A DNA stretch of 64,000 nucleotides. It comes from Escherichia coli 042 (lineage in GTDB: Bacteria > Pseudomonadota > Gammaproteobacteria > Enterobacterales > Enterobacteriaceae). The notes under the pieces were generated by a model. The model was not told the origin of the DNA. It did no database searches and saw only the letters and a list, made by a program, of their open reading frames with translations. Both the position numbers and the translations under genes were made by a program. The stretch is from NCBI RefSeq assembly GCF_000027125.1, contig NC_017626.1. One strand, given 5' to 3'. Every line of letters starts with the position of its first letter. The first letter of the stretch is position 1. Shown here piece by piece: positions 6,434 through 64,000 of the stretch.

Positions 6434-7771
6434 TTAATCTTTGCTTATTGGTGCATCTAAGGGATACGGGTTTTTATGCAGCCGGTTGTAATTCAGCGCA
6501 TACATGGCGGTGATGACCATCAGGGTGACAAATGACCACATAACCTCTTTCGCCCCGGACCCCACCACGGCCCAGATGCAGTAGAGGAAGGCAATGGTAG
6601 TAACTGCCAGATATACCGGGCGTGCTTTACCAAAGTGGCCGTGGCCGAGCAGCAGTAACGCCGCACAGGTGTAAAGATATGGCACCAGTGTAAAGATGAC
6701 CGAGACGGAAGAAACCAGACCGAACTCTTTGGTCGCGTTTGGTGAAATGCTGCTGAGCTGGAAGATGGTCATCAAAATACCGACGATAATCAGCCCCGCC
6801 ACTGGCGTACCCGCTTTATTAACACGGGCAAAAATCGGTGGGAACAGTCCGTCATCGGCAGCGGCTTTCGCCGTTTGACCCGCCAGCAACGTCCAGCCGC
6901 CCAGTGAACCTAAGCAACCCGCAGCTGCGCAGAAGGAAACAATGGCCCCGGCGGTGTCACCCAACGCCATCCGTGCGGCATCACCGAATGGCGAGGCAGA
7001 AACGCGCAGTGCGGCATTAGGGATCATCCCCATAATCGCGGTGGTGGAGAGTACATAGCAAACGGCGGCAATCAATACCCCACCAATGGTGGCGATAGGG
7101 ACGTTGCGTTTCGGGTTTTTCACCACACCTGCGGCAACGGAGGCACTTTCCACACCGATGAACGACCACAGCGTAACGTTAAGGGTACTTTGAATTGCAC
7201 CGAAGGTGCCCAGGCCGCTGACGTTCCATGCCGCCATATAGGTTTCACCACGGAACCAGAACCAGCCAAATACGGCAATCCCGACGATGGGGATCAGCGC
7301 CAGCACGGTGGCAACGGCCTGCACGCGGGTGATCATTTTCGGACCGACAATATTCAGCAGGACGAAGATCCACAGCACCACGACGCAGGTGATGGTTAAT
7401 ACCAATGGATCTTTCAGAATCGGGAAGAAGTAACTTAAATAACCTACGCCAATGACCACCATGGCGATATTGCCGATCCAGCAGGCCAGCCAGTAGAGGA
7501 CGTTGGTTTGATAACCGAGAAACGGCCCAAAGCAGCGACGGGCGTAAGCGTAAGAACCACCAGGACTTGGGTCGAGGAACGACATTTTGGCGTATACCAT
7601 CGAGAGCCCCAGCGCACCGATAATCGTCACCAACCATCCATAAATGGCAATCCCGCCAGTGGAGGCCAGGTTTGCAGGTAACAGAAAAACACCTGACCCC
7701 ATAATATTCCCCGACACCATCAGGGTGACGGGGATTAAGCCCACTTTGTGAGCATCAGCATCCGAAGACAT
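6434..7771 (-). CDS. adiC: Arginine:agmatine antiporter AdiC (APC family)
   Basis: 445 aa; [36 protein letters not shown]; 12-TM profile; synteny with adiY and adiA. Confidence 0.95.
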
Positions 7772-7907
7772 AATTAAACTCCTGCGAAGGCGAGCTTCGT
7801 GACAATAAATTACGTCATATCATACGCCTGCATTCGATAGTTGAATTATTATCGACCGGGTTATCGCTGATGCCGTTATTAATATAGCTCTTCGTTAAGG
7901 TTAAAAA

Positions 7908-8669
7908 TCAGGCGACAGTGCGTTCTCTGTGCTGACTAACATAATGCAGAGGCGTCATACCGTAGAAGTCTTTAAAGACAGAAATAAAGTACGACGTACT
8001 GTTGTAGCCGCAGGATTGTGATACCTGAGAGATATTTTTACCGTCCATCATTAATTCATTGACGGCATAACGCATGCGGCAGGTGGTGATTATTTGGCTA
8101 TAACTGGTGTTTTCGCTTTTCAGCTTTTTCTTTAACAGACTCGGGCTAAGACATAAACAACCGGCTACCATACTAAGATTCCAGTCTTTGTGGATATCGC
8201 TTTCAATAATTTGATAAACGCTGTCACTTACACAATTACGTAACATATACATCATTAATGAAAGGAATTTTTTACTGTCGAGAAAACGGGATAGCACAGT
8301 GAATAATAATGCACGTGTTCGTTCCTTTTCTGACTCAGTTTCAGCGGGCATCATGCTATGTTGCGCGGCAACGCGAAAGACGTCTGGCGTCAGGCATGGC
8401 AGGGTGAGGATGGGCGTAGCGCTACGTTGCCATACTGGTATTTGCGAGAGATCTTTATTCAGAAACCGGAGGTAATCTTTGATGATGTCGTGACTAATAT
8501 GAGCAACCAAAGTGTTATTAAGAGAGGAGACGTCGATAATATTATTTTCACAATTTAATAACGCCATATGGTTAGCTTTAAGGCTAATAGGTTCTTTCCC
8601 ATTCACCCTTATCCAGACATCTTTTTCAGTCAATAAAACAATACAAGGTTGGTCGCTGCAAATCCTCAT
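7908..8669 (-). CDS. adiY: AraC-family regulator AdiY
   Basis: 253 aa; C-terminal AraC-type HTH; lies between adiC and adiA. Confidence 0.9.
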   Translation of the reverse strand: MRICSDQPCIVLLTEKDVWIRVNGKEPISLKANHMALLNCENNIIDVSSLNNTLVAHISHDIIKDYLRFLNKDLSQIPVWQRSATPILTLPCLTPDVFRVAAQHSMMPAETESEKERTRALLFTVLSRFLDSKKFLSLMMYMLRNCVSDSVYQIIESDIHKDWNLSMVAGCLCLSPSLLKKKLKSENTSYSQIITTCRMRYAVNELMMDGKNISQVSQSCGYNSTSYFISVFKDFYGMTPLHYVSQHRERTVA

Positions 8670-52745: not shown

Positions 52746-52798
52746 GATCGATGTATCTGTTATATTGAGATTTTTCAGATCTTCGTCCTATAATGATC
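52746..52798 (+). promoter_or_regulatory. T6SS promoter candidate: TATAAT -10 flanked by three GATC sites in an AT-rich Fur-box-like context
   Basis: GATC at 52746, 52778 and 52795; TATAAT at 52789-52794 abuts the third GATC; ataatgatcaaaatta resembles the Fur-box core; ~80 nt upstream of tssB. Confidence 0.6.
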
Positions 52799-52874
52799 AA
52801 AATTAAATCAGTGCACAAGGGGAGGCATCTGCGGTGATGGAACCCCTGAGATGCAGGTTTCACAGGAGAGAGCC

Positions 52875-53372
52875 ATGAGCAGTTCGTTTCAGAATGAAAT
52901 CCCGAAAGCAAGGGTAAATCTGAAATTAGACCTACATACGGGTGGTGGGCAGAAGAAAGTGGAGCTTCCGCTCAAACTTCTGGTTGCCGGTGATTTCAGT
53001 AACGGACAGGAAGAGCGTCCACTGTCAGAGCGTGTAAAAACGGATATTAATAAAAACAATTTTAATGATGTTCTGGCAGATATCTCCCCGTCTGTACATC
53101 TGAATGTGGAGAACACGCTTGCCGGTGATGGCTCTGAAGAGAGCATCAGCCTGACTTTCCGCAATATGAACGATTTCACGCCAGAGCAGGTCGCCCGACA
53201 GATTCCCCGTCTTAAAGCCATGCTGGCCATGCGTAGCCTTCTGCGGGACCTGAAAGCCAATCTGCTGGATAACGTGACTTTCCGTAAAGAGCTGGAAAAA
53301 ATTCTGCGTGACCCGGCACTGAGTCAGACGCTGCGTGATGAACTGCGTGCACTGGTGCCGGAAAAGGCGTGA
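52875..53372 (+). CDS. tssB: T6SS contractile sheath small subunit TssB
   Basis: ORF 52851-53372; from the internal Met, MSSSFQNEIPKARVNLKLDL...VELPLKLLVAGDF, a typical TssB/VipA N-terminus; RBS aggagag upstream. Confidence 0.93.
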   Translation: MSSSFQNEIPKARVNLKLDLHTGGGQKKVELPLKLLVAGDFSNGQEERPLSERVKTDINKNNFNDVLADISPSVHLNVENTLAGDGSEESISLTFRNMNDFTPEQVARQIPRLKAMLAMRSLLRDLKANLLDNVTFRKELEKILRDPALSQTLRDELRALVPEKA

Positions 53373-58679: not shown

Positions 58680-59171
58680 ATGGCAATTCCAGTTTATCTG
58701 TGGCTGAAAGATGATGGCGGTGCAGATATCAAAGGGTCCGTGGATGTTCAGGACCGTGAGGGCAGCATTGAGGTGGTGGCTCAGGAGCACTGCCTCTACA
58801 TCCCGACGGATAACAATACCGGTAAGCTGACCGGTACCCGTATTCACACGCCGTTTCTGTTTACCAAGGAAATTGATTCTTCCAGCCCGTACCTTTACAA
58901 GGCCGTGACCACCGGGCAGACCCTGAAGTCTGCTGAGTTTAAGTGGTACAAAATCAATGATGCCGGTCAGGAGGTGGAGTATTTCAATACGAAGCTTGAG
59001 AACGTGAAGGTGGTGAAGGTTAACCCGGTCATGCACGACATCAAGAATCCCGCTTACGAGAAGCATAACCACCTTGAGCAGGTGGAACTGCGCTACGAGA
59101 AAATCACCTGGACTTACAAGGACGGCAACATCATTCATTCCGACGCATGGAGTGAGCGTACCACCGCGTAA
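58680..59171 (+). CDS. hcp: T6SS inner tube protein Hcp (TssD)
   Basis: 163 aa; MAIPVYLWLKDDGGADIKGSVDV, classic Hcp. Confidence 0.93.
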   Translation: MAIPVYLWLKDDGGADIKGSVDVQDREGSIEVVAQEHCLYIPTDNNTGKLTGTRIHTPFLFTKEIDSSSPYLYKAVTTGQTLKSAEFKWYKINDAGQEVEYFNTKLENVKVVKVNPVMHDIKNPAYEKHNHLEQVELRYEKITWTYKDGNIIHSDAWSERTTA

Positions 59172-59330: not shown

Positions 59331-61997
59331 GTGAATAACATGGAAAATTCGGCAGCCCTGTTACGTCGTCTTAATCATTACTGTGCCCGTGCACTGGAAG
59401 GCGCAGCCTCCCTTTGCCAGACCCGGGCCCATGCGGAAATCACCCCGGAGCACTGGTTACTGAAACTGCTGGAGCAGGGGGAAGGAGACCTTACCGTGCT
59501 GGGCAGGCGTTATGACTGGGATATGGACGCGATATGGCAGTCGCTGCTCGGCTGGCTGGATAACCAGCCCCGTAGCGTACGCAGTCGCCCGCAGCTTGCG
59601 CAGTCCCTGAATGCTCTGCTGAAACAGGCCTGGATGGTGGCCTCATTACAGGGAGAAGAACATATCCGCAGCGTGCATCTGCTGGGTGCCCTGACGGAAA
59701 ATCCGCACCTGGTTCGCTGTGACGGGCTGTGGCCTCTGCTGACACTGAGTCAGAGCCAGTTGCAGCGTCTGTCCCCGCTGCTGGATGCGCAGTCTGATGA
59801 GTGTCCGGAGACGTTACAGGATGCAGAGCCTGTGCTGCCTCAGGGAGACAGTGTGACCTTTATCGGGCGCCCTGTCGGTGCGGATACGGCAGGTATACCG
59901 TCAGGTGACCTGCCGCCGGTGTTACAGGGTGCGCTGGATAAATTCACCCGGGACATCACGGCCAGCGCGAGAGAGGGGAAAATTGACCCGGTATCGGGAC
60001 GCGATACGGAAATCCGTCAGATGGTGGATATTCTCTCCCGCCGTCGCAAGAATAACCCGATTCTGGTGGGGGACCCCGGTGTGGGGAAAACGGCTCTGGT
60101 GGAAGGGCTCGCCCTGCGTATTGTGGAAGGTAACGTACCAGAATCTCTCAGACCCGTCACCCTGCGCACCCTTGACCTCGGCCTGCTGCAGGCCGGTGCC
60201 GGCGTGAAAGGTGAATTTGAACAGCGTCTGAAAAACGTGATTGATGCCGTGCAGCTGTCACCGGCTCCTGTACTGCTGTTTATAGATGAAGCCCATACCC
60301 TTATCGGTGCCGGTAATCAGGCCGGTGGCGCGGATGCGGCCAACCTGCTGAAGCCTGCGCTGGCGCGAGGCGAACTGCGCACCATTGCTGCCACCACCTG
60401 GTCTGAGTACAAACAATACCTGGAACGTGACGCGGCTCTGGAGCGGCGTTTTCAGATGGTCAAAGTGGACGAGCCGGATGATGAGACGGCCTGTCTGATG
60501 CTGCGCTCCCTGAAATCCCGTTATGCGGAACATCATAACGTGCATATCACCGATGAGGCAGTACGTGCTGCCGTCACACTCTCGCGCCGTTATCTGACAG
60601 AACGTCAGTTACCGGACAAGGCCGTTGACCTGCTTGATACTGCTGCTGCCCGTGTGCGGATGAGCCTCGACACGGTGCCGGAACAGCTGACCCGAATCCG
60701 TTCACAGCTCGCTTCCCTCGGTATGGAAAAACAGGCACTGCTGGAAGATATTGCCGTTGGTCATCAGAATCACGGCGAACGCCTGTCTGCCATTGAGCAG
60801 GAAGAGAACGTGCTGATGACAGCACGTGATGACCTGGAGCAGCAGTACGCCCGTGAGTGCGAACTCACCGGTGAGTTACTTGAAAGCCGCAGCGATATTT
60901 CCCGCCAGAGTGAGACACATCACCTGCAGCAGGCACTGCACGACATTCAGCAGAATCAGCCCCTGCTCAGTGTGGATGTTGACGTACGCACCGTTGCCGG
61001 TGTGGTCGCGGACTGGACCGGAGTGCCGTTATCCTCACTGATGAAGGATGAACAGACGGAACTGCTGCATCTGGAAAAGGATATCGGCAGACGGGTGGTC
61101 GGACAGGACGTGGCACTGGAATCCATTGCACAGCGTCTGCGTGCGGCGAAAACGGGTCTGACATCCGGTAACGGCCCCCAGGAGGTGTTCCTGCTGGTCG
61201 GCCCCAGTGGTGTGGGAAAAACCGAAACGGCACTGGCGCTGGCAGATGTGATGTACGGCGGCGAAAAATCACTGATTACCATCAATCTGTCGGAATATCA
61301 GGAGCCCCATACGGTTTCCCAGCTTAAGGGTTCACCGCCCGGGTACGTGGGATACGGTCAGGGGGGTATTCTGACGGAAGCTGTACGTAAGCGCCCTTAC
61401 AGCGTGGTGCTGCTGGATGAAGTGGAAAAGGCCCACCGGGATGTGCTGAATCTGTTCTACCAGGTGTTTGACCGGGGCTTTATGCGCGACGGTGAGGGGC
61501 GTGAAATTGACTTCCGTAATACGGTCATTCTGATGACCTCCAATCTGGGCAGTGACCTTCTGATGCAGCAACTGAGCGAAAAGCCGGAGACAACGGAATC
61601 GGAGCTGCATGAGCTTATCCGTCCACTGCTGCGCGACCACTTCCAGCCAGCACTGCTTGCCCGTTTCCAGACCGTGATTTACCGTCCGCTGACACCGTCT
61701 GCTATGCGCACCATTGTGGAGATGAAGCTTGCACAGGTCTGCGAACGCCTGCACTGCCATTATGGGCTGAGCACATCGGTTGATGAACGTGTGTACGATG
61801 CCCTGACATCCGCCTGCCTGCTGCCGGATACGGGCGCCCGGAATGTGGAGAGTCTGCTGAACCAGCAACTGCTGCCGGTACTGAGCCGGCAGTTGCTGAG
61901 CCATATGGCCGCGAAGCAGAAACCGCAGGCGCTGGCTCTGGCATGGAGTGACGAAGACGGTATGGTGATTGAGCTGCGGCAGGAATGCGCGTTATGA
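59331..61997 (+). CDS. clpV: T6SS AAA+ ATPase ClpV (TssH)
   Basis: 888 aa; two AAA+ modules with Walker A GDPGVGKT and GPSGVGKT; ClpB-like N-domain. Confidence 0.95.
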
Positions 61998-62560
61998 CCG
62001 GCTATGGCAGAAATCAGGACGCTGGCGCAGGTAAAAATCAAAGGGAAGAAGGCTCATTGCGGTTACTGACGCCGGGAGAGATTGCGCTGGCGAGGCTGGT
62101 ATTCAGGTTGACAATCCCTTATGAAAAGGTCTGGATCCACCATGACAGTTTTCTGCCTTTTGGTCTTCAGAATAAGCAAACTGCCATGCCCCCCGATGGT
62201 AAGATTTATTTCCGTGAGCACTATCGGGATGATTATTCACTCAGCGTTCCCTTTTATCAGCATATGTTTATTCATGAAATGGCGCATGTCTGGCAGCGTG
62301 AAAAGGGAATGAATGTCATCGGTCGGGGGATGTTCAGTTGGGCGGTGAATTACCGTTATGTTCTGGACGGGCGTCTGTTAAGCGAATATCCCATGGAGCA
62401 GCAGGCACAAATTATTGCTGATCATTTTACTTTGCAGGCTGAAGGATACGGGACATGGTGTGATATGAGAAGGGACGGTGATATCACACTGGACGGAAAT
62501 ATGTCTGAGTATGTTATTCGCAGCCTGTATACCAGCACGTTGCGGGGGTTCCCATGGTAA
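61994..62560 (+). CDS. HExxH-motif protein (putative Zn-metallopeptidase-like), T6SS-associated, function unknown
   Basis: ORF 61985-62560; ATGA overlap with the clpV stop suggests translational coupling; motif FIHEMAHVWQ; no signal peptide. Confidence 0.55.
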   Translation: MTGYGRNQDAGAGKNQREEGSLRLLTPGEIALARLVFRLTIPYEKVWIHHDSFLPFGLQNKQTAMPPDGKIYFREHYRDDYSLSVPFYQHMFIHEMAHVWQREKGMNVIGRGMFSWAVNYRYVLDGRLLSEYPMEQQAQIIADHFTLQAEGYGTWCDMRRDGDITLDGNMSEYVIRSLYTSTLRGFPW

Positions 62561-63096
62561 AAATAAGAGCCTTTCGTTATCGTTCTGCTTTACTGCTCTG
62601 TCTGACGTTACTGACAGGATGCCCCGGACGCGGGGATTATTATCGGTTTGATGAAACAGTAACGGTCAGCACAAGAGGCGACAATGTGTGTTTCAGTGTC
62701 CCGGAGCCAGAGGACTACCAGCCAGTCAGCGTTTCCATCGCTCCACGGGGAACCCGATTCAGGGAGCGGCAAATTACATCTGAACCCTCGCTTCGTATCG
62801 TGAACGGCCAGCTGTGCATTCCGCCTTCATTCTGTCTTTTTCCTGATAAAGGCCAGTTCATTGTCAGGTCTGTTCTGCACTCTGAGCGCGATAAGGACAC
62901 ACCGCGCATCATGGTTGCCGGCATAGAGATTGCCGACGGGTGTATTTTCGATATCCCGCTTAATGACATGGAGGTCGTGAGGCCATACGGTGAGCTGAAA
63001 AGCAGTAATGTTCAGACTGACCAGAGCGAACGTCATGGTCCCTGCAAATACCCTTTCAGAGCTGTTCGTGGAGTGATAAATCATGAATCTCACTGA
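62554..63096 (+). CDS. Predicted lipoprotein (180 aa), T6SS-associated
   Basis: Signal peptide plus lipobox LLTGC (MVKIRAFRYRSALLLCLTLLTGC); overlaps the HExxH ORF upstream and vgrG downstream. Confidence 0.55.
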   Translation: MVKIRAFRYRSALLLCLTLLTGCPGRGDYYRFDETVTVSTRGDNVCFSVPEPEDYQPVSVSIAPRGTRFRERQITSEPSLRIVNGQLCIPPSFCLFPDKGQFIVRSVLHSERDKDTPRIMVAGIEIADGCIFDIPLNDMEVVRPYGELKSSNVQTDQSERHGPCKYPFRAVRGVINHESH

Positions 63097-64000
63097 CTCC
63101 CTGCAAAATGTTTTATCCGGGGTGGGAACCCTGAACCGCTACAGACTGGATATACCTTCCTGCCCGTCATCGCTGGATGTTGAAGATTTCAGCGGAACTG
63201 AAGGCATAAGTAAGATTTACCGGTATGACATCATTTTTACCAGTACGGACAGGTATCCTGATGCTGCCTGGTTCCTGCGTAAATCCGCAACCCTGATAAT
63301 GGGAACCGGATTACTGGAAAGCCTGACTGAACAGAAAAAAGTGCACGGTGTTATTACTGATTTCAGACGTATTTCTGGCTCTGAGGACCAGGCACAATAC
63401 CGGATCACACTTAAACCTTTCATTTCCCTGCTGGATAAACAGTTCCGTACACACCGTTTTTTCGTTAATAAATCAGTGCCTGAGGTGGTGGAGCAAATCC
63501 TGACGGAACACGGGCTGAAAGGCTGGGAGTATGAGTTCAGCCTCAAAAGGACATATCCGAAGCGCGAACAGATTAACCAGTATCAGGAAAGCGATCTGAG
63601 ATTTATCCAGCGCCTGCTGGCAGAAGTGGGCATTTTTTACTTCTTTACGTTGCACCCGGATGCGCAGACAGAGGTGATCCACTTCGGTGACGTCCAGGCG
63701 GCGTTGATATTTGATAAAACACTGCCCGTTAACAGCCCGTCCGGTATGAGTGACAGTGGCACAGACTCAGTATGGGCATTGAATGTGGAGCACCGGGTGG
63801 TGGAAAGCCGTGTTATCACGAACGACTATAACCACCGCGAGGCCCAGAACATACTGATGTCCGTACCGGCGGACATGACCCGTGGAGAAGGTTACGACAC
63901 CAGTTATGGCGAGGTTTATCATTACCGGCCACGCCATACAGAAAGGGGCGATAAAATTGACCCTGCGCCGGAGACGGCTAACTTCTGGGCCCGGCTCGAT
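63083..64000 (+). CDS. vgrG: T6SS spike protein VgrG (TssI), N-terminal part; runs off the window end
   Basis: Manual translation from atg 63083: MNLTDSLQNVLSGVGTLNRYRLDIPSCPSSLDVEDFSGTEGISKIYRYDIIFTS...; open to position 64000; typical VgrG gp27-like N-terminus. Not in the ORF track because no stop is reached. Confidence 0.85.
   Translation, partial: MNLTDSLQNVLSGVGTLNRYRLDIPSCPSSLDVEDFSGTEGISKIYRYDIIFTSTDRYPDAAWFLRKSATLIMGTGLLESLTEQKKVHGVITDFRRISGSEDQAQYRITLKPFISLLDKQFRTHRFFVNKSVPEVVEQILTEHGLKGWEYEFSLKRTYPKREQINQYQESDLRFIQRLLAEVGIFYFFTLHPDAQTEVIHFGDVQAALIFDKTLPVNSPSGMSDSGTDSVWALNVEHRVVESRVITNDYNHREAQNILMSVPADMTRGEGYDTSYGEVYHYRPRHTERGDKIDPAPETANFWARLD

Follow-up and report, generated by a model that had tools for sequence, protein, structure and literature searches.

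What is encoded by the two small genes that separate clpV from vgrG in the Sci-1 type VI secretion system (T6SS) cluster of Escherichia coli 042? This question was addressed for a stretch of 64,000 nucleotides (nt) of the contig NC_017626.1, herein referred to as the window. The two open reading frames (ORFs), ORF1 and ORF2, occupy positions 61994..62560 and 62554..63096 of the window, respectively, both on the plus strand, like the features located below between positions 58680 and 64000 of the window. Annotation was taken from RefSeq for the chromosome of E. coli 55989 (locus L001), which is 100% identical to the window; the genes belong to Sci-1, a T6SS cluster of enteroaggregative E. coli (EAEC). 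An earlier sequence-only reading of this DNA had offered two explanations for the pair, namely a metallopeptidase effector that acts in the periplasm and is matched by a lipoprotein for immunity, or an accessory pair of the sheath or spike. The results support the former explanation: ORF1 and ORF2 very probably form an antibacterial T6SS effector/immunity pair of the VgrG2b C-terminal/Tpe1 family. This interpretation is based on the homology and fold shared by ORF1 and VgrG2b, on the assignment of ORF2 to the NF045617 and DUF7480 families, and on an experimentally tested pair located in the same position in Salmonella arizonae. It is further supported by fusions of the ORF1 domain to VgrG and PAAR proteins, by the variability of the clpV-vgrG slot, by arrays of orphan immunity genes, and by the presence of tssJ elsewhere in the cluster. 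For the E. coli pair itself, we infer secretion, toxicity, and neutralization by analogy with these systems.

Both ORFs are genuine genes rather than chance reading frames, since they are annotated by RefSeq, ORF1 has 246 database relatives, and the pair recurs in the same order across dozens of genera of Enterobacterales. ORF1 (WP_000148361.1) encodes 188 amino acids (aa), starting with the ATG at 61994 and ending with the TAA at 62558-62560; an alternative in-frame ATG is located at 61985, and the RefSeq start is the one at 61994. ORF2 (WP_001403984.1) encodes 180 aa, from the ATG at 62554 to the TGA at 63094-63096. In RefSeq, ORF1 is named "hypothetical protein" and ORF2 "putative T6SS immunity periplasmic lipoprotein"; the latter name corrects the idea that ORF2 is an unannotated gene.

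The N-terminus of ORF1 is hydrophilic and has no signal peptide, and the sequence FIHEMAHVWQ is found at residues 92-101. Thus, the sequence-only reading was right in describing a cytoplasmic-looking protein with a HExxH motif. The codons of this zinc-binding/catalytic motif (HEMAH, H94-E95-M-A-H98) occupy positions 62273..62287. Profile searches were informative for only one member of the pair: ORF2 was assigned to a family, as described below, and ORF1 had no match in Pfam, even at E ≤ 10, or in NCBIfam. The homology of ORF1 became visible only in a sequence search of the Protein Data Bank (PDB). In a phmmer search of ORF1 against all PDB chains, the sole match was 6H56, the effector domain of VgrG2b from Pseudomonas aeruginosa (E = 7.9e-20, 74 bits, residues 22-153). 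Structure prediction led to the same domain. The AlphaFold2 model of ORF1, built from an alignment of 35 homologues, has a mean predicted local distance difference test score (pLDDT) of 81.7 and a predicted template modeling score (pTM) of 0.79, with residues 1-19 predicted to be disordered. Searched against PDB with Foldseek, this model retrieved 6H56_A (E = 2.3e-8, probability 1.0, template modeling score of approximately 0.6, approximately 34% identity), and no other PDB match was found below E = 1.

The residues H94, E95, H98, and E135 are invariant across the 35 homologues of the alignment. In the structure of VgrG2b, H935, E936, and H939 make up the catalytic triad, with E983 as an additional ligand, as in thermolysin-like gluzincins (Wood et al., 2019). 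In the phmmer alignment, H94, E95, and H98 of ORF1 are aligned with H935, E936, and H939, and E135 is aligned with the Glu of the VgrG2b sequence IEQQ, which is E983 when a 7-residue alignment gap is counted. The codon for E135, located at 62396..62398 within the invariant MEQQAQII block, would thus encode the third zinc ligand, the Glu typical for gluzincins. Judging from its sequence, ORF1 is a clear homologue of the VgrG2b C-terminal/Tpe1 family and a predicted stand-alone zinc metallopeptidase, with H94, H98, and E135 as predicted zinc ligands and E95 as the predicted catalytic base.

The profile of the ORF1 family matched 2146 cluster representatives at E ≤ 0.001. Matches of approximately 1000-1280 aa carry the ORF1-like domain at the C-terminus of VgrG, and matches of approximately 380-410 aa carry it together with an N-terminal PAAR domain. 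Such fusions to VgrG and PAAR are the architecture of delivered toxins. In NCBI and UniRef, many homologues of ORF1 carry the label "type IV secretion protein Rhs". This name is a misnomer, as these are neither type IV secretion nor Rhs proteins, and the assignment made in this study corrects both this wrong name and the "hypothetical protein" of RefSeq. Natural variants of the active site were also observed, namely HEMAY in Pseudenterobacter timonensis (L002, 6983-7528) and HEMVD in Ewingella americana (L073, 6992-7513). Their sequences suggest that these variants may have lost their activity as effectors while the lipoprotein partner was retained.

Besides the Salmonella pair described below, two characterized systems contain peptidases of the same family. 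The C-terminal domain of VgrG2b and PA0261 form an antibacterial effector/immunity pair whose site of action is the periplasm, where the toxicity of VgrG2b depends on its catalytic residues (Wood et al., 2019). The observed effects of VgrG2b include bacteriolysis, altered cell morphology, and loss of several lipoproteins from the membranes, with no detectable hydrolysis of peptidoglycan (Wood et al., 2019). The similarity of ORF1 to VgrG2b covers the signature sequence (MFIHEMAHVW in ORF1 and LFIHEMTHVW in VgrG2b) and all four active-site residues, and in both systems the peptidase gene is followed by a small gene for an envelope-targeted immunity protein. The VgrG2b domain is covalently fused to the spike, whereas ORF1 has a gene of its own immediately upstream of vgrG. 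The second system, Tpe1/Tpi1 of Acinetobacter baylyi (ACIAD0053/ACIAD0054), includes a member of this peptidase family that occurs as stand-alone cargo. Tpe1 is toxic in the periplasm in low-salt medium, and mutation of the catalytic residues abolishes this toxicity (Wood et al., 2019). In contrast to ORF2, Tpi1 is attached to the inner membrane through a transmembrane helix instead of a lipid, and the Acinetobacter partners are modeled by NCBI as a separate family, NF045616.

The relationship to VgrG2b also brings up a role in the eukaryotic host. In this explanation, ORF1 would act mainly or additionally as a host effector, similarly to the reported role of VgrG2b in bacterial uptake through the gamma-tubulin ring complex, and ORF2 would serve just for self-protection. 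Published work attributes the interaction with this complex to the C-terminal extension of VgrG2b, the domain of which is homologous to ORF1, and the strain analyzed here is an enteroaggregative pathogen. However, the identity of ORF1 to VgrG2b is only approximately 34%, the dedicated partner of ORF1, a periplasmic lipoprotein, points to a bacterial target in the periplasm, and plant-associated and environmental Enterobacterales commonly carry homologues. The host role is called an open question by the authors of the Salmonella study (PMC12992299). An anti-host function, whether main or additional, is considered very unlikely.

The partner gene encodes a lipoprotein. The N-terminus of ORF2, MVKIRAFRYRSALLLCLTLLTGC, contains a hydrophobic stretch after a positively charged n-region, and then the lipobox LTGC; the lipobox had been noticed in the sequence-only reading. 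The codons for L20-T21-G22-C23 occupy positions 62611..62622, and Cys23 is the predicted acylated residue. ORF2 matches the NCBIfam model NF045617, "putative T6SS immunity periplasmic lipoprotein", with 84.7 bits against the curated cut-off of 43, and the Pfam family DUF7480 (PF24295) with E = 2.9e-11. Neither product had been recognized earlier as a core Tss component, and this held in the searches: NF045617 is the only NCBIfam match of ORF2, and the annotated tssJ is at another place in the cluster. TssJ was considered as an identity for ORF2 and rejected on these two grounds, the separate tssJ being located at L001 36837-37373.

The cysteines of ORF2-type partners and the divergence of the pair were compared for 46 effector/partner pairs from other genomes. 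Cys23, Cys46, and Cys88 are 100% conserved among these partners. The conservation of Cys46 and Cys88 fits the dependence on DsbA reported for the P. aeruginosa immunity protein PA0261 (Wood et al., 2019), and a disulfide-dependent fold of ORF2 is suggested by this pattern. In an AlphaFold2 model of ORF1 and ORF2 joined by a linker, the mature core of ORF2 is an all-beta sandwich with a pLDDT of approximately 90; Foldseek searches with the ORF2 part of this model gave just generic matches to FN3/Ig-like beta-sandwiches. Residue +2 of the mature protein is Pro (C-P-G), and the Asp retention signal is absent; with such a sequence, ORF2 is expected at the inner leaflet of the outer membrane. SARI_02726 of S. 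arizonae fractionates with the outer membrane (Wood et al., 2019), and by analogy with this protein ORF2 is predicted to be a periplasm-facing immunity protein of the outer membrane. In contrast, PA0261 was found in the periplasmic fraction, and Wood et al. (2019) set it against the Enterobacteriaceae homologues, which are predicted lipoproteins. The C-terminal tail of ORF2 (approximately residues 151-180, positions 63004-63096) has low model confidence or is predicted to be disordered, and it overlaps the start of vgrG. This tail of approximately 30 residues is missing from most orthologues, among them the 154-aa forms, and is present in a few close relatives, for example in Pseudenterobacter and Leclercia.

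Experimental data are available for a close counterpart of the pair, SARI_02727/SARI_02726 of SPI-20 in S. arizonae (Salmonella enterica subsp. arizonae) RSK2980, published in Front Microbiol in 2026. SARI_02727 (189 aa) is toxic when directed into the periplasm, and SARI_02726 (154 aa, DUF7480/NF045617) partly rescues growth (PMC12992299). A mutant with a deletion of the pair is outcompeted by the wild type and not by the effector mutant, and the AlphaFold 3 model of the complex has an interface pTM (ipTM) of 0.87 (PMC12992299). The similarities to the E. coli pair include the position in the order hcp-clpV-X-Y-vgrG, a stand-alone peptidase of approximately 189 aa with matching HExxH and Glu residues, and a DUF7480/NF045617 lipoprotein as the partner. 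The comparison was made with S. arizonae CCUG 6322T (locus L016), whereas the published strain is RSK2980. In the CCUG 6322T genome, the hcp-clpV-X-Y-vgrG order was found with a 7-nt overlap between the genes for two proteins of 189 and 154 aa, which are 64% identical to ORF1 (E = 4e-84) and 43% identical to ORF2 (E = 4e-43), respectively. The catalytic residues of this peptidase are located at positions 95, 96, 99, and 136, which is the numbering used in the 2026 paper for SARI_02727 (PMC12992299). The two systems differ in the lipoprotein, which has 180 aa with the tail of approximately 30 residues in E. coli and 154 aa in SARI_02726, and in the downstream cargo, which in E. coli is Tle1/Tli1.

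It should be noted that the sequence-only reading went too far in calling the pair the most promising candidate for an undescribed functional module. In many Enterobacteriaceae, a VgrG2b-type peptidase is a putative cargo effector of the T6SS, and its gene precedes that for a lipoprotein homologue of PA0261 (Wood et al., 2019). Thus, the peptidase family, its stand-alone enterobacterial form, and the lipoprotein immunity partner were already published in 2019, and the Salmonella pair was tested in 2026.

The distribution of the pair was analyzed in 79 loci from species-representative genomes. Nearly every ORF1 homologue is followed by a gene for a small lipoprotein, usually with an overlap of 4-10 nt, 7 nt being the most common, and a lipobox is present in nearly all of these downstream partners. 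The complete hcp-clpV-ORF1-ORF2-vgrG order was found in approximately 35 of the 79 loci. In E. coli, the pair is rare, being carried by only 34-38 of 5426 complete genomes; among the 34 carriers holding most of the query, its sequence is 97-100% conserved.

Such a conserved position could also be expected for an assembly accessory of the T6SS, with ORF1 as a peptidase remodeling the cell wall or envelope that helps insertion or recycling of the machine in the producing cell and ORF2 as its lipoprotein regulator or anchor. The pair is tightly coupled inside a structural operon, its place between clpV and vgrG is conserved across many genera, and the identity of approximately 60-79% among ORF1 proteins is higher than usual for polymorphic toxins. 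However, ORF1 has no signal peptide, and the periplasm of the producer would therefore be unreachable for it through the Sec pathway. Moreover, closely related E. coli clusters have no such pair or have another gene in its place. In the genome of E. coli Nissle 1917 (L081, 7016-7028), tssH is directly followed by vgrG and the slot is empty. In STEC719 (L082, 5715-6356), which has a ClpV 97% identical to that of the window, the slot is occupied by a gene for an unrelated 213-aa protein without any NCBIfam match. In strain 33F4 (L083, 5930-7184), the slot contains a divergent peptidase/lipoprotein pair and an additional ORF of 69 aa. Related T6SS clusters of E. coli thus differ in the content of the clpV-vgrG slot. 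Together with the fusions to VgrG and PAAR, the arrays of orphan immunity genes found in other genera, and the observation that deletion of the Salmonella pair sensitizes cells to their own parent (PMC12992299), this makes an accessory of the sheath, the spike, or T6SS assembly extremely improbable.

A zinc-scavenging substrate of the YezP type was also considered for ORF1 and rejected. YezP of Yersinia pseudotuberculosis has 117 aa and a zinc-finger-like motif and is encoded at the end of its cluster (YezP paper); it lacks both the HExxH motif and the position between clpV and vgrG.

Gene arrays suggestive of recombination were found in other genera. Extra copies of ORF2, as well as 3' fragments of ORF1 accompanied by another ORF2, were found in six loci (L009, L012, L013, L038, L042, and L066). 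Positions of these arrays include L012 4517-7980, L038 7001-10489, L009 8114-8556, L013 2492-3144, and L066 97-2269. The 3' fragments begin at ORF1 residues from approximately 87 to 155 and always end at residue 188. These arrays look like orphan modules displaced by recombination, as in other polymorphic toxin loci. In the 46 pairs, the mean pairwise identity is 42% for ORF2, 71% for residues 21-147 of ORF1, and 49% for residues 148-183. By ordinary least squares, the identity of ORF2 tracks the C-terminal region of ORF1 (0.66) slightly better than the core (0.25). Since shared ancestry confounds this comparison, the apparent co-variation of ORF2 with the C-terminal region of ORF1 is merely suggestive. 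This C-terminal region (approximately residues 148-188) was found by profile search to be specific to the enterobacterial subfamily.

Homologues of a more distant subgroup, approximately 52-56% identical, were found in another T6SS subtype. In locus L072 (6380-7929), the homologue is located directly after an hcp-like gene and is followed by a gene for an NF045617 lipoprotein, with genes for TagH and a PP2C phosphatase nearby. In L071, L075, and L078, an hcp gene is located just downstream of the pair (positions of approximately 7000-8400). This arrangement hints at Hcp-linked delivery.

For the E. coli pair, the following mechanism is proposed. ORF1 would be a zinc gluzincin of approximately 21 kDa that lacks a signal peptide, is produced in the cytoplasm, and is fired by the Sci-1 T6SS as non-covalent cargo into the periplasm of Gram-negative neighbors, where its peptidase activity would damage the envelope. 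Carriage in the Hcp lumen fits a protein as small as ORF1 and the linkage to hcp found in other subtypes, and loading on the spike fits the position next to vgrG and the fusions to VgrG and PAAR in other proteins. ORF2 would be exported by Sec, processed by signal peptidase II, lipidated on Cys23, and sorted to the outer membrane. There, its predicted disulfide-stabilized beta-sandwich would bind and block ORF1 that comes in or is delivered by sibling cells. The three overlapping start/stop junctions would tie the expression of the pair to that of clpV and vgrG. The fusion model mentioned above, built with a paired alignment, has a pTM of 0.78 with a pLDDT of approximately 90 for both domains and 78 of 370 residues disordered. 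Such a pTM is hard to reach with this disordered fraction unless the domains are confidently docked, and the model is taken as indirect support for the pair.

Several points weigh against the effector/immunity interpretation. The fusion model, scored by pTM and pLDDT, suggests that the domains are confidently placed relative to each other, but its pTM is an indirect proxy. DUF4157, a HExxH domain of approximately 80 residues that is a frequent annotation of members of this peptidase family (Wood et al., 2019), has no match in ORF1 even at E ≤ 10. The presumed kinship of ORF2 to PA0261 is taken from a statement of Wood et al. (2019). For VgrG2b, direct cleavage of a substrate has not been identified (Wood et al., 2019), and T6SS-dependent secretion of SARI_02727 was not shown, according to its authors (PMC12992299). 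In the literature on the E. coli pair, the single mention found is one in which EC042_4531 marks the place of a reporter insertion. Finally, the antibacterial activity of EAEC Sci-1 is attributed to Tle1 in a review. ORF1 may therefore contribute little under standard laboratory conditions; Tpe1 likewise showed its toxicity only in low-salt medium.

The activity attributed to Tle1 would agree as well with a pair that is silent or vestigial in EAEC, that is, perhaps expressed from its genes but either not loaded or inactive, with Tle1 as the killing effector and ORF2 kept as a defense against relatives. The natural active-site variants HEMAY and HEMVD are consistent with such decay in other genomes. 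However, all four catalytic residues and the full reading frame of ORF1 are intact in E. coli, the carriers show the high conservation given above, and the geometry of the coupled genes is preserved; we regard a silent or vestigial pair as very unlikely. The preferred interpretation as an active effector/immunity pair has a parallel in the same cluster. Similarly to what is proposed for ORF1 and ORF2, Tle1 of the Sci-1 Tle1/Tli1 pair is a cargo toxin that acts in the prey periplasm, is neutralized by an outer-membrane lipoprotein, and is encoded next to vgrG. In contrast to ORF1, Tle1 is an unrelated phospholipase A1 that binds the C-terminal extension of VgrG.

The pair is thus a probable second effector/immunity pair for EAEC Sci-1, the most-studied E. 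coli T6SS model, and this native E. coli member would provide a convenient system for finding the substrate of the peptidase family. Two linked readings were also weighed jointly, namely that Sci-1 has a second, overlooked antibacterial effector beside Tle1 and that the family behaves like polymorphic toxins. This combination is regarded as possible, if doubtful. In a family of this kind, the immunity specificity would reside in the variable C-terminal part of ORF1 (approximately 40 residues), outside the catalytic core. Recombination would swap this C-terminus along with the fast-evolving lipoprotein gene and leave orphan arrays of the type "3' fragment plus immunity". In EAEC, the immunity gene would also be driven by P4532, a Fur/Dam-controlled promoter inside the effector ORF.

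The primary paper on P4532 is reportedly Brunet 2020. This internal promoter of the sci1 cluster is described in papers of the Cascales group. According to published landmarks, clpV adjoins EC042_4531 and tle1 is EC042_4534. From these landmarks, we infer that ORF1 corresponds to EC042_4531 and ORF2 to EC042_4532, and P4532 should therefore lie inside ORF1. Through this promoter, expression of ORF2 and of the genes downstream can probably proceed without the main T6SS promoter. The best match to a Fur box inside ORF1 is an AT-rich 19-mer at 62411..62429 with 12 of 19 positions matching, a score reached 85 times in the window. It contains the only AT-rich GATC in ORF1, at 62420, and is located 134 nt upstream of the ORF2 start. 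This 19-mer may correspond to P4532 and is a weak candidate. A scan for consensus promoters and terminators in the region 61700-63300 gave no more sites than expected from shuffled sequences. Outside this region, a match of 13 of 19 positions, with a TATAAT and a GATC, was observed at 52789-52807, 86 nt upstream of tssB (start at 52875); this site fits the main Psci1 promoter.

The neighboring genes of the Sci-1 cluster follow the order tssB, tssC, tssK, tssL, a gene of the OmpA family (TagL-like), hcp, and tssH (clpV). Downstream of clpV, ORF1 and ORF2 are followed by vgrG, tle1, two copies of tli1, a PAAR gene, and the remaining tss genes, including tssJ and tssE. The hcp gene, encoding the T6SS tube protein and named "type VI secretion system effector Hcp" by RefSeq, is located at 58680..59171. 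The clpV gene (RefSeq tssH, L001 17441-20098) occupies positions 59340..61997, with its stop codon at 61995-61997. The 5' part of vgrG, annotated as a Vgr family protein (L001 21184-23709), is located at 63083..64000, the gene being cut by the end of the window. Consecutive genes overlap by 4 nt (ATGA) for clpV and ORF1, by 7 nt (CCATGGTAA) for ORF1 and ORF2, and by 14 nt for ORF2 and vgrG, exactly as had been described before from the sequence. In the segment 62546-62562, the invariant C-terminus of ORF1 (…GFPW) and the near-universal "MV" start of ORF2 share the bases of the 7-nt overlap in two frames. This overlap probably constrains the ends of both proteins.

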